From: Rhodothermales bacterium
GTDB lineage: Bacteria; Bacteroidota; Rhodothermia; Rhodothermales; DATKEJ01
Length of the DNA stretch: 39,949 bases
NCBI GenBank assembly: GCA_035512315.1
Contig: DATKEJ010000240.1
Location: 1-39,949, forward strand
Reading direction: 5' to 3'
Every line of letters begins with the position of its first letter. The first letter of the stretch is position 1. The position numbers were made by a program, and so were the translations under genes. Below the pieces are notes generated by a model. It was given only the letters and a program-made list of their open reading frames with translations, was not told where the DNA came from and ran no database searches. This document shows positions 9,735 through 37,342 of this stretch, piece after piece.

Positions 9735-9776
9735 GTCCGGCGTCCGGCGTCCGGCGTGAAGGGTGTGCTGTTCCGT
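9735..9776. repeat. heptanucleotide tandem array (GTCCGGC x3, then GTGAAGG GTGTGCT GTTCCGT)
   Basis: Direct reading in 7-nt register from 9735 gives three perfect units followed by three degenerate units that keep the leading GT. Confidence 0.7.
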
Positions 9777-10125
9777 AGGGGCAAGGCCAGAGCCCACCGG
9801 TCTCGACTCGTTTGGCGCAACGGTCGGGGCGTCGGCCTTCCCTTCCGAGGAACCTGTAGGGACATGCCGCCAGGCATGTCCGTCGAAGTGCACAGGCAGA
9901 CCCAGTTCCATTATACAAGGCCAAACGGCCTGCCCGTCCGCCAAGCGCGAGCAGCCGCCCTCCCCGCACGGGAGCAAGAATGGGCTCGAGCGAAGCTCCG
10001 ATATCGCCCGATTATGTCTGACTCGGAGCCGTGGTTCGTCCCGCTGCGATTTTGGCGAGACCAAAGGACGTTTCGGTCGTTTATTATTACTAGCCGATCA
10101 TAGATCCAACACACGAAGGAGCATC

Positions 10126-11694
10126 ATGGCAGAGCACGCACAGCTGACAGGTCCGGACTTGACGAAGGGCATCCCGGTTGATGAACTCGCAGAGGGCGAG
10201 ATGAAACTTGGCCATGCGGAAGGCGAGGCCGTGCTCCTCTCGCGGCTCGAGGATGGTTTTTTTGCCATTGGGGCGACCTGCACGCATTACAGCGGTCCGT
10301 TGGCCGAGGGGCTCATCGTCGATGATACCGTGCGATGTCCCTGGCACCACGCCTGCTTCAGCCTGCGAACCGGGGAGGCCTTACGTGCGCCGGCGCTCAA
10401 TCCGACTTCGTGCTGGAGCGTCGAGGTCCGCGACGGACGTGTGTACGTGGTCGACAAGGTAGGAAGGGAGAAACTTGATCTCGAGCGACGTCGATATCAT
10501 CCATCGGACGGGGAGGAGCTCAACGACATCGTGGTTGTCGGCGCAGGCGCGGCGGGCGATGCGGCCGCCGAGATGCTGAGGCGCGAAGGTTTCGAGGGAA
10601 CCATCAGCCTGGTTGGTAAGGATCAGGCGGCTCCGTATGATCGGCCGAATCTTTCGAAGGACTACTTGGCGGGCTCTGCTCCCGAGGAATGGCTGCCGCT
10701 CCGACAGTCCGGCTTCTACGCGAACAACGACATCGATTTAGTCCTCGGAGTTCAGGCCACTTCCATTTACCCTGACGATGGCCGAGTGCTTTTGTCGAAC
10801 GGTGATTCACTGCGATTCGACAGGCTGCTTCTTGCGACCGGGGCAACGCCGGTGCGTCTTCCTGTGGAAGGAGCGAAGCTTCCCCACGTTTACTACTTGC
10901 GAACTCTAGCAGACTGCCGGGCGATCATACATGGATCTCAAGGTGCGAAGCGTGTGGTCGTAATAGGAGCTAGCTTCATTGGCATGGAAGCGGCCGCTTC
11001 CCTCGCGGAGCGTGGCTTGCACGTGGCCATCGTCGCACCTGAGTCACAGCCGATGGAGCGAATTCTCGGTCCCGAGATCGGCAAGCTCGTCCGAGGCTTG
11101 CATGAGGAAAAAGGTGTCGAGTTTTATTTGAACCGAACGGTCACGACGATCGGGTCGGACACCGTCACCGTCTCGGACGGAACCGAACTGTCCGCAGACC
11201 TCGTCGTCGTCGGAATCGGGGTTCGACCCGAAACCAAGTTGGCGAAGGATGCCGGTCTCACCGTAGATGACGGCGTAATTGTCGACGAGTACCTCGAAAC
11301 CAGCCATCCAGGCATATTTGCGGCCGGCGACATCGCGCGTTGGCCCGATCGCCGCTCGGGGCGCCGAGTCCGGGTCGAGCACTGGGTGCATGCGCAACGG
11401 CAAGGGCAGGTGGCTGCTCGAAACTTGCTCGGTCGTCGCGAGGCGTTCACGATGGCCCCCTTCTTCTGGACGCATCAGTTCGACCTTTCGATTTCGTATG
11501 TGGGTCACGCGGTGGATTGGGGCCGGATCGAGGTTGACGGTAGCATCGAAGACCGGGAGTTTTCTGCGTCTTTCATGTCAGGAGAGAAAACGCTTGCTGT
11601 TGCCAGCGTCGCCCGCGGCCTTGAGAATCTAAGGGCCGAGGTGGCCATGGAGCGGGATGATAAGGAGGCCTTGCCCGGGCCAATCGCTTCCTGA
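10126..11694 (+). CDS. Rieske [2Fe-2S] domain fused to FAD/NAD(P)-dependent ferredoxin-reductase-type oxidoreductase
   Basis: ATG at 10126 is preceded by AAGGAG. Rieske ligands are present: CTHYSGPL ... CPWHHACF. Two Rossmann motifs follow (VVVGAGAAGDAAA and VVVIGASFIGMEAA) plus a C-terminal reductase domain. The track ORF starts at 9763, but that 121-aa extension is Arg/Cys/Ser-rich and not protein-like. Confidence 0.85.
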   Translation: MAEHAQLTGPDLTKGIPVDELAEGEMKLGHAEGEAVLLSRLEDGFFAIGATCTHYSGPLAEGLIVDDTVRCPWHHACFSLRTGEALRAPALNPTSCWSVEVRDGRVYVVDKVGREKLDLERRRYHPSDGEELNDIVVVGAGAAGDAAAEMLRREGFEGTISLVGKDQAAPYDRPNLSKDYLAGSAPEEWLPLRQSGFYANNDIDLVLGVQATSIYPDDGRVLLSNGDSLRFDRLLLATGATPVRLPVEGAKLPHVYYLRTLADCRAIIHGSQGAKRVVVIGASFIGMEAAASLAERGLHVAIVAPESQPMERILGPEIGKLVRGLHEEKGVEFYLNRTVTTIGSDTVTVSDGTELSADLVVVGIGVRPETKLAKDAGLTVDDGVIVDEYLETSHPGIFAAGDIARWPDRRSGRRVRVEHWVHAQRQGQVAARNLLGRREAFTMAPFFWTHQFDLSISYVGHAVDWGRIEVDGSIEDREFSASFMSGEKTLAVASVARGLENLRAEVAMERDDKEALPGPIAS

Positions 11695-11779
11695 CCCTAT
11701 CGCGTGCGTTCGACCGTGAACATGCAGCCATTGCATTTCGGTTGGGTTACAGTTACGGAGATTGACCGCCCAGGATGCT

Positions 11780-35020: not shown

Positions 35021-37072
35021 ATGGGTAACGATTTACAGGACGACAAGCAGGGACCTCAGGGGCCAAAGCTGATGGATAGGCGTCCGCGCCTGTCCCCCTG
35101 GATTTACGTGATGATTCTCGCCGGCCTCCTGGCGGCGAACATGTATTTCCTGAGCAAAGCTGACCCTAATGAGATCGAGTACGGCCGCTTCCTCGACGCG
35201 GTGAGGGACGGGTACGTCGAGGAGCTGGTAATCGTTGATGATGCCTACATCCGTGGTCTGTACACGGCTGAAGCAGTCGATCAGGGGCTTGTCGAGCCGG
35301 GAAGCGCGCCCCAGACGCTGTTCAACACCAGCGACGAGTCGGCCCCGCGCCGCTTTTTCACAGTCAAGCCCGACGATCACCAACTGACCGATTTCCTCGA
35401 GGGGCACAACAGTACGGCCCTCGAGAACGGGCAACAAGCCGTTAAGTACGGCGCAAGACGCGACGACAACTGGCTCTCCGGCCTGTTGACGTGGATCATT
35501 CCGCTCGGTCTCATCATCGTGCTGTGGGTGTTCCTGCTGCGGCGAATGAACCCTGGCCAGCAGGTGCTCAACATTGGGAAGAACAAGGCCGTGCTTTTCG
35601 ACTCGATGAGCGACCAGCGGATCAATTTCGACGATGTCGCAGGACTGGAAGAAGCCAAGGGCGAGGTTGAGGAAGTCGTTCAGTTCCTGAAGAATCCTAA
35701 AAGGTTTACGCGGCTCGGCGGAAAGCTCCCGAAGGGTGTGCTTCTCGTCGGTCCGCCGGGGACGGGCAAGACCCTCTTGGCAAAAGCGGTCGCCGGCGAG
35801 GCTGCTGTCCCCTTCTTTTCGCTCTCCGGAAGCGACTTTGTCGAGATGTTTGTCGGCGTGGGGGCAGCGCGGGTCCGCGATCTTTTCCGCCAGGCCAAGG
35901 AAAAGGCTCCCTGCATCATTTTCATCGATGAGATCGACGCGATCGGGCGCTCGCGCGGCAAGAACATGATAATGGGCGGCAATGACGAGCGTGAGAATAC
36001 GCTGAACCAGCTGCTCGTCGAGATGGATGGTTTCAATACGGACAAGGGCGTCATCATTATGGCGGCCACCAACCGACCCGATGTTCTCGACACCGCGCTG
36101 CTTCGTCCCGGGCGATTCGACCGGCAGATCATGATTGACAAGCCGGATCGGAAGGAGCGGGCAGAAATATTCAAAGTCCACACCAAGGGTCTCACGCTCG
36201 ATCCCGAGGTCGACCACTTCGCACTCGCAGGTCAGACGCCGGGCTTTGCGGGCGCCGAGATCGCGAACGTATGCAATGAAGCGGCACTGTTGGCCGCTCG
36301 TGAGGGTAAGGATGCGGTTGGAATGAGCGATTTCGAGAGCGCCATCGATCGGGTTATCGGCGGTCTCGAGAAGAAGAACAAGATCATTTCTCCGGAAGAG
36401 AAGGAGATCGTCGCGTACCACGAAGCAGGGCACGCCATCACGGGATGGTTCCTCCGTTACACCGACCCAGTCATCAAGGTCTCCATCATTCCTCGAGGGC
36501 TCGCCGCGCTCGGTTACGCGCAGTACCTGCCTGAGGAGCGGTACCTTTATACGAGTGAGGGATTGTTTGATCGGATGGTGATGATGATGGGCGGCCGCGT
36601 CGCCGAGGAGATCGTTTTCGGGCGTGTATCTACCGGAGCACAGAACGATCTCGAGCGCATCACGAAGATGTCTTATGCCATGGTGACCGACTATGGAATG
36701 AGTGAGAGGCTCGGTTATCTGAGCTTCAACCTTGGAGGCTATCGCGAGGAGCCGCTTTTCGACAAGCCCTATTCCGAGGAGACGGCGCGGATCATCGACG
36801 AGGAAGTGAAGTTGATCATTGGAAACGTTCGGATAAAAGCACGCGAGCTCCTCGATTCGAAGCGAGACCAACTCGAGGCATTGGCGCAGGCCCTTCTTGC
36901 CAAAGAAGTCATGTCTGCCTCTGAAATCGAAACCATCCTGGGTCCGCGACCTCATCCGGTGGTTCAGGCACAGCCCGCGGTGGCGGACGTCTCCGAAAAC
37001 GGTGAGTCGCACCAGATTCCTTCAGAGGGTGACGGTGCGTCTGATGCGGAGCCGGTCGAGCAGGGCGCTTAG
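35021..37072 (+). CDS. ftsH: ATP-dependent zinc metalloprotease FtsH
   Basis: 683-aa ORF with two TM segments. It has Walker [14 protein letters not shown], Walker [10 protein letters not shown], the SRH motif [19 protein letters not shown] and the zinc site HEAGHA. Confidence 0.97.
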
Positions 37073-37080
37073 AAACCTGT

Positions 37081-37101
37081 CCTAGGTCCGAGGTCCGAGC
37101 C
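37081..37101. repeat. short degenerate heptamer array (CCTAGGT CCGAGGT CCGAGCC)
   Basis: Three related 7-nt units start 9 nt after the ftsH stop. The following units CGGTTCC GTAACGG contain GTTCCGTA, which is also found at the end of the 9735 array. This is the weakest member of the family. Confidence 0.35.
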
Positions 37102-37342
37102 CGGTTCCGTAACGGTCGCTCGCAGCTCAGACGTCCTTGGCCGGCTGTCAAGCGTCAATCTCACTGAGACCCCATTTTCGGGCGCCGGCGTCGAGCTGGC
37201 TATCGAGCTATTCACGATCGTTTCGGGCTAACTACAACCGATCTATTGCGCTATATCGATATATCGTCTCTTTTCGGAAGTCCTCTCCCTAACCGCGAAT
37301 AATTCAGCGCATCTTGACATTCCTGAGGACAAAATCTTGCCT

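Follow-up and report, generated by a model that had tools for sequence, protein, structure and literature searches.

Dispersed heptanucleotide tandem arrays in intergenic DNA of an uncultured Rhodothermia bacterium and its relatives

Tandem heptanucleotide repeats of the short tandemly repeated repetitive (STRR) type have been known in the cyanobacteria Calothrix and Nostoc since 1990, with the units CCCCAGT, TTGGTCA and CAACAGT in STRR1-3, and their function is unresolved. Arrays of similar design lie in the intergenic DNA of contig DATKEJ010000240.1 of assembly GCA_035512315.1, a Rhodothermales bacterium, and raise the question of what such arrays are and whether they form a dedicated system, as a first-pass annotation had supposed. 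The stretch analysed, hereafter the window, is the whole 39,949 nucleotides (39.9 kb) of that contig. The explanation that we favour, with moderate confidence, is that the arrays are slippage-driven heptanucleotide simple-sequence repeats (SSRs), surviving only where a 7-nt insertion or deletion (indel) is harmless, and abundant in one uncultured Rhodothermia lineage.

Tandem Repeats Finder, run on the window, reports eight period-7 arrays in five intergenic regions, and all five regions were then read by eye. The arrays are:

9735-9757: GTCCGGC x3.3, decaying in register through GTGAAGG GTGTGCT GTTCCGT to 9783 (Tandem Repeats Finder and in-register print)
14820-14855: the C family (CAAYGTG x5; GTGCAxx), CAACGTG CATGGTG CAATGTG CAATGTG CAGCGTG
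14860-14929, with a tail to 14932: the D family, TACCATG x7, then CACCATG, then TACGATG and AACGATG, decaying to ACGATGA
22054-22087 (units to 22088): the A family (AAACGCT x4.9), AAACGCT AAACGCC AAACGAG AAACGCT AAACGCC
22251-22293: the B family (GAACCCC x6), GGAACCTC (GAACCCC)x4 GAACCCG TAACCCG
29397-29431 (TAAACGC x5) and 29433-29459 (GAACSTC x3-4): the purQ-site arrays, two Tandem Repeats Finder calls
37079-37099 (entry 37072-37099): GTCCGAG x3, GTCCTAG GTCCGAG GTCCGAG, which is B-family unit GGACCTC in reverse complement

These occupy three kinds of context – a 5′ leader, the 3′ ends of genes, and DNA upstream of promoters. The arrays at mltD, ftsH, the ligase and OAFO-beta come shortly after stop codons, and those at gyrA and tRNA-Pro are upstream of conserved promoter regions. 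The A array begins 12 nt past the mltD stop codon, and the 37.08-kb array, which is only three units long, 6 nt past that of ftsH. The C array begins 6 nt past the stop codon of a hypothetical gene (14323-14814), the D array – partly the reverse complement of C – reaches right up to the stop codon of the acyl-CoA ligase gene on the minus strand (14932-16809), and together they fill the entire 117-nt gap between two convergent stop codons. The B array, (GGGGTTC)n when read on the minus strand, precedes the gyrA ATG by about 144 nt and comes directly before a conserved block, GAATTCGCCTTGAAC. The first array (9735-9783) sits in the 473-nt gap between the minus-strand tRNA-Pro (9578-9652), about 80 nt upstream of it, and the true Rieske-FNR start at 10126. 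At purQ, positions 29398-29459 form a single unbroken 7-nt register, (AAACGCY/AAACGAT)x5 followed by AACCTGG AACCTCG AACGTCG AACGTCT, which spans from the purQ start codon (CAT 29395-29397, minus strand) to a promoter-like block.

Period 7 is the sole enriched period in the window, and chance is excluded. A lag-7 autocorrelation over the whole window finds six segments that match at 17 or more of 21 positions, all six intergenic, while lags 3-6 and 8-12 find none and 200 shuffles of the window average 0.005. Exact tandem runs number ten at period 7 (10/10 intergenic) and zero to four at each other period, nearly all of these in coding DNA. In register, the arrays show runs of one variant plus stepwise change, with the mean Hamming distance between units rising from 2.1 for neighbours to 3.6 for units five apart. 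The core of the first-pass annotation – dispersed period-7 arrays at five loci, outside supported coding DNA, with units that mutate stepwise along a gradient – is thereby borne out. Its alternative of an assembly artefact is rejected, as MEGAHIT, Logan, JGI and long-read metagenome-assembled genome (MAG) assemblies of relatives carry arrays at orthologous sites. Short-read contigs of clade members also end in or beside a heptamer array (position 1 of L164/L165; the end of L169, at 3623; L numbers denote loci of other genomes and metagenomes), which suggests that arrays break assemblies, and arrays may therefore be under-counted in MAGs.

Four open reading frames (ORFs) or ORF extensions overlap arrays, and none of the four is supported as coding. 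A coding reading of the purQ-site array was rejected since the PurQ family match begins at the ATG at 29397 and close homologues are all 231 aa; an upstream-extended Rieske-FNR was rejected on alignment with the M122 orthologue, which puts the start at ATG 10126; and ORF 22094-22417, which has no NCBIfam family match, was rejected as a gene. Restriction to intergenic DNA does not by itself speak for a system, as it is expected of every repeat unit whose length cannot be divided by three.

How far do the arrays extend beyond the window? We compared loci of genomes and metagenomes, 82 centred on gyrA and 80 on purQ, and added targeted look-ups of clade members. The best GyrA match, 88% identical, is in MAG MFD05684.bin.1.294, labelled 'uncultured Bacteroidetes', and the closest PurQ, 93% identical, is in GCA_036507595.1, labelled 'Rhodothermia bacterium'. 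A scan of metagenomes for PurQ gave identities of at most 66% and no close relatives, serving as background only, and an exact match to the S12 protein of the window was found in two short contigs only. The presence of type IX secretion system (T9SS) genes and the best GyrA match place the host as an uncultured bacterium of the class Rhodothermia.

By a common criterion (period 7, at least three copies, score at least 35), the window holds 8 arrays in 39.9 kb and L003, a locus of the closest relative, 4 in 22.5 kb, versus 25 in the pooled other 1.9 Mb, or 13 per Mb. These 25 background arrays cluster in a few contigs, and among background arrays of at least three copies period 7 is again the commonest, with 25 versus 2-16 for periods 5, 6 and 8-12, in line with what has been published for bacterial genomes at large. 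The other Rhodothermales loci (L004, L006, L011, L054, L005 and L017) have no array by the common criterion. When L003, L171 and L172 of the closest relative are joined, the 42.3 kb of contiguous sequence carries eight arrays (one, with a score of 31, below the criterion), three of them in the 10 kb past the left edge of the window, which is non-orthologous to it and so constitutes an independent sample. The predicted extension of array density past the window is thus seen, albeit unevenly, for a 12-kb clade contig (L173) has none. The arrays are a lineage-restricted feature of this Rhodothermia clade.

Some contigs from soil and sediment that are unrelated to the window are array-dense too: L014 (9856-9971), L108 (11875-11941 and 12701-12757), L110, L117, L139, L089 (9858-9922) and L131 (3961-4035). 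The L108 unit GACGTTC is the complement of GAACGTC in the window, and in L014 an array of GAACYCM abuts the gyrA ATG.

Orthologous sites in the relatives show both persistence and turnover:

purQ 5′ site, window: (AAACGCY)5 + (GAACSTC)4
purQ 5′ site, L003: (AATCGCT)5 + (GGACCYC)10.6
purQ 5′ site, L167: (TYGGACC)4
purQ 5′ site, L164/L165: (AATCGCT)2
purQ 5′ site, L166: (GGGTGCA)n … CACCGTG CACATTG
purQ 5′ site, L163: about 10 GTGCAAY/GTGCATG units, a spacer, and (CACCATG)3
gyrA 5′ site: window (GAACCCC)n; L003 GGACCAC x2, GGACTAC x2; L164 GGATCGC, GGGCTAC x2, GGACCAC
ftsH 3′ site: window 3 units; L001/L002 4-5 units, GTCCGGA GTCCGGG GTCCGAA GTCCGAC
acyl-CoA ligase 3′ site: window about 113 nt, C- and D-type; L168 (CYTGCAC)16.4; L171 two copies; L170 none
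mltD 3′ site: window five units; L003 none; L164 a new two-copy TCCGTGG TCCGTGG versus a single copy in L003

Sites are kept across about 25% nucleotide divergence (the genomes being about 75% to 93% identical), but their units and copy numbers are replaced over time. The purQ 5′ site is bounded by fixed flanks (the start codon and, at the opposite end, AAAGATA..CGAACCAATC..CTCAAATCGTTCTGC), and the content between them differs in every genome, with lengths of roughly 20, 45, 57, 100, 113 and 132 nt in six genomes. The genes flanking this site in L163 are about 91% identical to those of the window, and the blastn alignment breaks precisely at the array. Upstream of gyrA, orthologous arrays are present in L003 and L164/L165, each with other unit variants. 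The ligase 3′ arrays measure roughly 115, 113, 14 and 0 nt, the L168 ligase being 95% identical to that of the window. Even the 37.08-kb array, which had been called weak, has an orthologue of four to five units in relatives. Comparison of the sites indicates that arrays are born from single-copy sequence and that their length is unconstrained. Arrays change on the timescale of species and, judging from near-identical strains with identical arrays (L164 versus L165, and L001 versus L002), are not phase-variation switches.

At two array sites the closest relative differs in gene content or orientation. Between 11700 and 14900 the window has a SufR-like regulator, a T9SS-sorted di-haem protein and a hypothetical gene, where the closest relative has a single hemerythrin gene (L003 2050-2540; L171 11847-12341), and the 14.8-kb arrays lie where this indel ends on the right. 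The segment with the tRNA-Pro gene and the DNA upstream of it has opposite orientations in the window (9578-9729) and L003 (111-261), and an array adjoins the gene in both genomes, on its upstream side in the window and immediately 3′ in L003.

The slippage explanation would account for these patterns in four steps. A 7-bp tandem duplication would originate in non-coding DNA; strand slippage or local unequal exchange would then grow or shrink the array and pass unit variants to neighbours, giving the blocks of identical variants and the gradient along the array. Since a 7-nt indel is a frameshift, arrays would persist only outside genes, and growth would stop on reaching a start codon, stop codon, promoter box or other constrained element. 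They would then be carried as 5′ leaders, 3′ trailers or promoter-upstream spacers, with no common dedicated function. We infer, rather than observe, the driver (slippage), the near-neutrality of the arrays and what favours 7 nt in this lineage.

The promoter-like block TTTG-N19-TATCTTT (29462-29491, minus strand) is the sole match in the window to the Bacteroidetes consensus TTTG-N17-22-TAnnTTT; with 0.24 matches expected by chance and at least one in 21 of 100 shuffles, the consensus match taken alone is weak evidence of a promoter. The block around it (29462-29510, between purQ and the arsN2-like gene) is conserved in L003 (17125-17170), L163, L166 and L167. Position and conservation in these four relatives make it likely that 29462-29491 is the purQ promoter, and for the same reasons the array probably forms the whole purQ 5′ leader.

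A leader composed of repeats is one of the points that speak for a different explanation, in which the arrays are functional cis-elements – multivalent DNA- or RNA-binding platforms for a lineage-specific factor that reads GRACNNC, AAWCGCY, GTGCAxx and RRTGAYY, with slippage tuning the number of sites. Sites persist across the divergence given above, a restricted unit repertoire recurs at unrelated loci and in different genomes, and several arrays abut start or stop codons, as do the TAACTGA repeats for which translational regulators have been proposed (PMC4679880). However, orientation relative to neighbouring genes is mixed, contexts vary among 5′ leaders, 3′ ends and promoter-upstream DNA, and both the length (about 20 to 132 nt) and the unit family at the purQ site differ wholly among relatives. 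There is no array in the 12 kb of L173, the ligase site of L170 is empty, and no candidate binding factor was identified. We therefore judge this explanation unlikely, though deserving of some weight: one dedicated cis-regulatory role is disfavoured because contexts are heterogeneous, orientation is mixed, length is unconstrained, arrays are replaced between close relatives and some sites are empty.

Four observations weigh against slippage as a complete account. First, the longest dispersed repeat in the window is an array segment, with 22054-22088 and 29398-29432 (7 kb apart) identical at 33 of 35 positions (94%), in the same variant order and with TGGAACCTCGAAC following at both loci, which pure in-place slippage does not explain. 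Second, the C-then-D composite of the 14.8-kb locus is found again, with order and orientation unchanged, in the about 91% identical genome L163, at its purQ site. Third, unit pairs with at most one mismatch between non-orthologous sites number 25 versus 6.4 expected, and exact pairs 4 versus 0.32 expected; the count allows rotation and either strand, and none of 2000 shuffles reached the observed value. Fourth, arrays are present at the purQ site in six of six relatives and upstream of gyrA in three of three, a constancy for which selection rather than inertia is possible. The unit families are few – GRACNNC (complement GTCCGNN), AAWCGCY, GTGCAxx/CACCATG and RRTGAYY – and in the closest relative three loci carry RRTGAYY-type arrays, AATGACT/AGTGACT units being common to two of them, and four carry GGACCAC-type arrays (including GGACTAC and GGACCYC). 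The relatedness of units between loci, put forward from inspection of the window, holds for the 35-nt match and for a 20-nt match at 90% identity (22250-22269 versus 29437-29456), and fails for an 8-mer shared by 9.77 and 37.10 kb, GTTCCGTA, which is not beyond chance. This limited repertoire, together with the persistence of sites and apparent copying between loci, exceeds simple in-place slippage and is the main unexplained residue.

Copying between loci could itself be the principal process, with arrays or composites (A+B, C+D) dispersed by descent through ectopic gene conversion, template switching or a small non-autonomous mobile element, possibly on top of slippage. The 35-nt match, the recurring C+D composite and the RRTGAYY arrays of the relative all fit such dispersal, and the arms of the L163 composite form a perfect 22-bp stem (z -6.7) resembling a terminal inverted repeat. 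We nevertheless hold it to be quite improbable as the main explanation: target-site duplications, flank homology and transposase are lacking, most arrays show little or nothing of the inverted arrangement, and array ends merge into conserved flanks (…ACGT|CTAAAG, in the window and L163). Moreover, the A-type array beside the purQ ATG has apparently been amplified in place, with AATCGC once in L167, twice in L164 and four to five times in L003. A more speculative proposal, which we rate as a long shot, is that each genome writes its arrays from a small set of heptamer templates of its own, by copy-paste, templated synthesis or frequent inter-array conversion, and are maybe kept for a lineage-specific factor; if true, it would cover the shared variant order at two loci, the array swaps at about 91% identity and the recurring unit families.

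The L163 stem also bears on the idea that the arrays are structural nucleic-acid elements – G-quadruplex (G4) or i-motif formers, hairpin terminators or RNA-stability elements – like the Xanthomonas GGGAATC and Nostoc GGGGAYT heptamers. On the opposite strand, the array upstream of gyrA is (GGGGTTC)n and the (GGACCCC)n of L003 is (GGGGTCC)n, both fitting the G4 sequence pattern; three arrays lie just past stop codons, a position reported in PMC4692102, and array plus inverted-array hairpins are found in the unrelated contigs L089 and L131 too. Most units, though, have no G-runs (AAACGCY, CAAYGTG, TACCATG, GTCCGGC, TAGTCAY): a G-run in every unit is found in the gyrA-upstream array and not in the other seven of the window. 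The pairing at 14.8 kb is weak: its fold beats shuffles by only a small margin (z -2.1 and -1.5), and that of L166 does not beat them, so that a hairpin or terminator reading of that locus was rejected. A terminator scan around the 22-kb arrays found none. The G4 or hairpin reading fits a minority of the arrays only, and as a general explanation we consider it very improbable.

At the 22-kb arrays, AGGGGTCTCGAA (22042-22053) pairs with TTTGAGACCCC (22203-22214) over 11 bp. Inside the pairing lie the AAACGCY array and a G+C-rich stretch of about 115 nt, for which Rfam gives no match and L003 no counterpart. Rfam at gathering thresholds gives tRNA-Pro alone in the whole window, and at E-values up to 1 gives zero matches in the mltD-gyrA spacer, leaving the arrays there and the 160 nt between them unexplained by a known RNA family.

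Returning to slippage, which remains our preferred explanation, how do the arrays compare with heptamers already described? According to Mrázek, Guo and Shah (2007), as summarized in PMC4679880 and PMC4692102, heptamers are the most over-represented class of long SSRs in many bacterial genomes and are mostly intergenic, and slippage was suggested as their origin; the preference for 7 nt has been suggested in print to reflect how long a stretch of DNA the replicative polymerase contacts. The arrays have the marks of this class – tandem 7-nt units beyond chance, exclusion from coding DNA, and copy and unit polymorphism at the ftsH 3′, gyrA 5′, purQ 5′ and ligase 3′ sites – and, like the long SSRs (5-11-nt units) of those summaries, are dominated by over-represented heptamers, sporadic in phylogeny, mostly intergenic (7 not being a multiple of three) and variable between related genomes. 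They differ in host, the genomes that the summaries list being Burkholderia, Xanthomonas, cyanobacteria and actinobacteria, with Rhodothermia unnamed.

With the STRRs, which occur in heterocystous cyanobacteria (Calothrix, Nostoc and Anabaena), the arrays share tandem 7-nt units at many non-coding loci, the STRRs having few unit families genome-wide; they differ in unit sequences, in being short (3-16 units) and in host phylum, as the window has T9SS genes and its closest relatives are named Rhodothermia, Rhodothermales or Bacteroidota. The first-pass annotation was right to place STRR-type, tandem non-coding heptamers in a host of the FCB group, here of class Rhodothermia. No window unit matches STRR1-3; TTAGTCA of L003 is one mismatch from STRR2, a likeness that we estimate to be within chance.

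Rehm et al. (2015) described the Xanthomonas GGGAATC and Nostoc GGGGAYT heptamers as about 90% intergenic and near the end of the upstream ORF, at sites that related species share while length and sequence vary, sometimes as inverted pairs (PMC4692102). Our arrays likewise occupy conserved intergenic sites, vary in length between species and are often near the end of an upstream ORF, but comprise at least four families, one of them giving G-runs, rather than one dominant G4-capable G-rich unit. MacGregor (2015) reported heptamer direct repeats, of TAACTGA and of other units, in marine Beggiatoaceae, in cyanobacteria and in five Bacteroidetes, among them Flexibacter litoralis, Gramella forsetii and Aequorivita sublithincola, the same intergenic regions also holding other heptamers (PMC4679880). 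That report overturns the earlier statement that no FCB equivalent had been described. TAACTGA repeats are also intergenic direct repeats and are often a few nucleotides upstream of start codons; unlike the arrays, they have a strong orientation and start-codon bias, and the unit is different. The window has no TAACTGA array, and only its purQ array abuts a start codon. A literature search covering Rhodothermus, Salinibacter and Rhodothermales yielded no relevant report of heptamer repeats.

Two other repeat classes were considered and rejected. Repetitive extragenic palindromes and bacterial interspersed mosaic elements (REP/BIME) or MITEs, the small transposable elements with inverted repeats, do not match variable-length direct repeats with a hairpin only in the C+D composites and no target-site duplications seen, and a CRISPR array, with repeats of 24-48 nt and unique spacers, does not match contiguous 7-nt units without spacers. 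On present evidence, the finding extends the known heptamer-repeat phenomenon to a new lineage and reveals no new system.

The genes among which the arrays lie were mapped from NCBIfam scans, unless indicated otherwise:

672-2549, minus: 2-oxoacid oxidoreductase alpha
2720-3103, plus: apaG
3489-4283, plus: thyA
4283-4825, plus: folA
5091-8144, plus: large aminotransferase fusion
9578-9652, minus: tRNA-Pro (Rfam)
10126-11694, plus: Rieske-FNR (start by protein alignment with the M122 orthologue)
11780-12400, minus: SufR-like regulator
12582-14240, plus: T9SS-sorted di-haem protein
14323-14814, plus: hypothetical gene
14932-16809, minus: acyl-CoA ligase
16989-18404, plus: hypothetical gene
18422-19972, plus: mmdA-like
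20119-22041, plus: mltD
22437-25028, plus: gyrA
25229-27289, plus: ABC-F
about 27330-28694 (ORF listed from 27030), plus: wcaJ-like
28702-29397, minus: purQ
about 29534-29967 (ORF listed from 29527), plus: arsN2-like
30007-31431, plus: pyk
31438-34899, plus: porW/sprE
35021-37072, plus: ftsH
37441-37812, plus: rpsL
37860-38327, plus: rpsG
after rpsG and running off the window, plus: probable fusA (outside the NCBIfam scan)

The 1017-aa product of 5091-8144 joins a phosphotransferase (APH), an M23 peptidase domain and a class-III aminotransferase (NCBIfam PRK06148) and is conserved clade-wide. About 90 nt downstream of gyrA, at 25115-25153, is an almost perfect hairpin whose arms are 18 nt and whose loop is 3 nt long (AGAGGGAGTGCGTCGCAC / GTGCGGCGCACTCCCTCT); it has no T-run and may be a terminator or a protein-binding palindrome. 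The approximately 260 nt upstream of rpsL (37180-37440) are almost identical to L001/L002, the preceding stretch having diverged, and probably comprise the str operon's promoter and leader; the gathering-threshold Rfam scan of the window gave nothing here, a permissive E-value not having been applied to this stretch.

Among long simple repeats, heptamers are the most over-represented in many free-living bacteria, though neither the reason for 7 nt nor a function has been established for them. The clade described here provides a compact comparative series, at about 75% to 93% nucleotide identity, in which birth, expansion, unit turnover and apparent inter-locus copying of arrays can be read, and in which one array is probably the whole leader of a housekeeping gene, purQ. 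Such a series could test whether slippage alone yields limited unit repertoires, and how far Bacteroidota, which are poor in Shine-Dalgarno sequences, tolerate arbitrary sequence in a 5′ leader.

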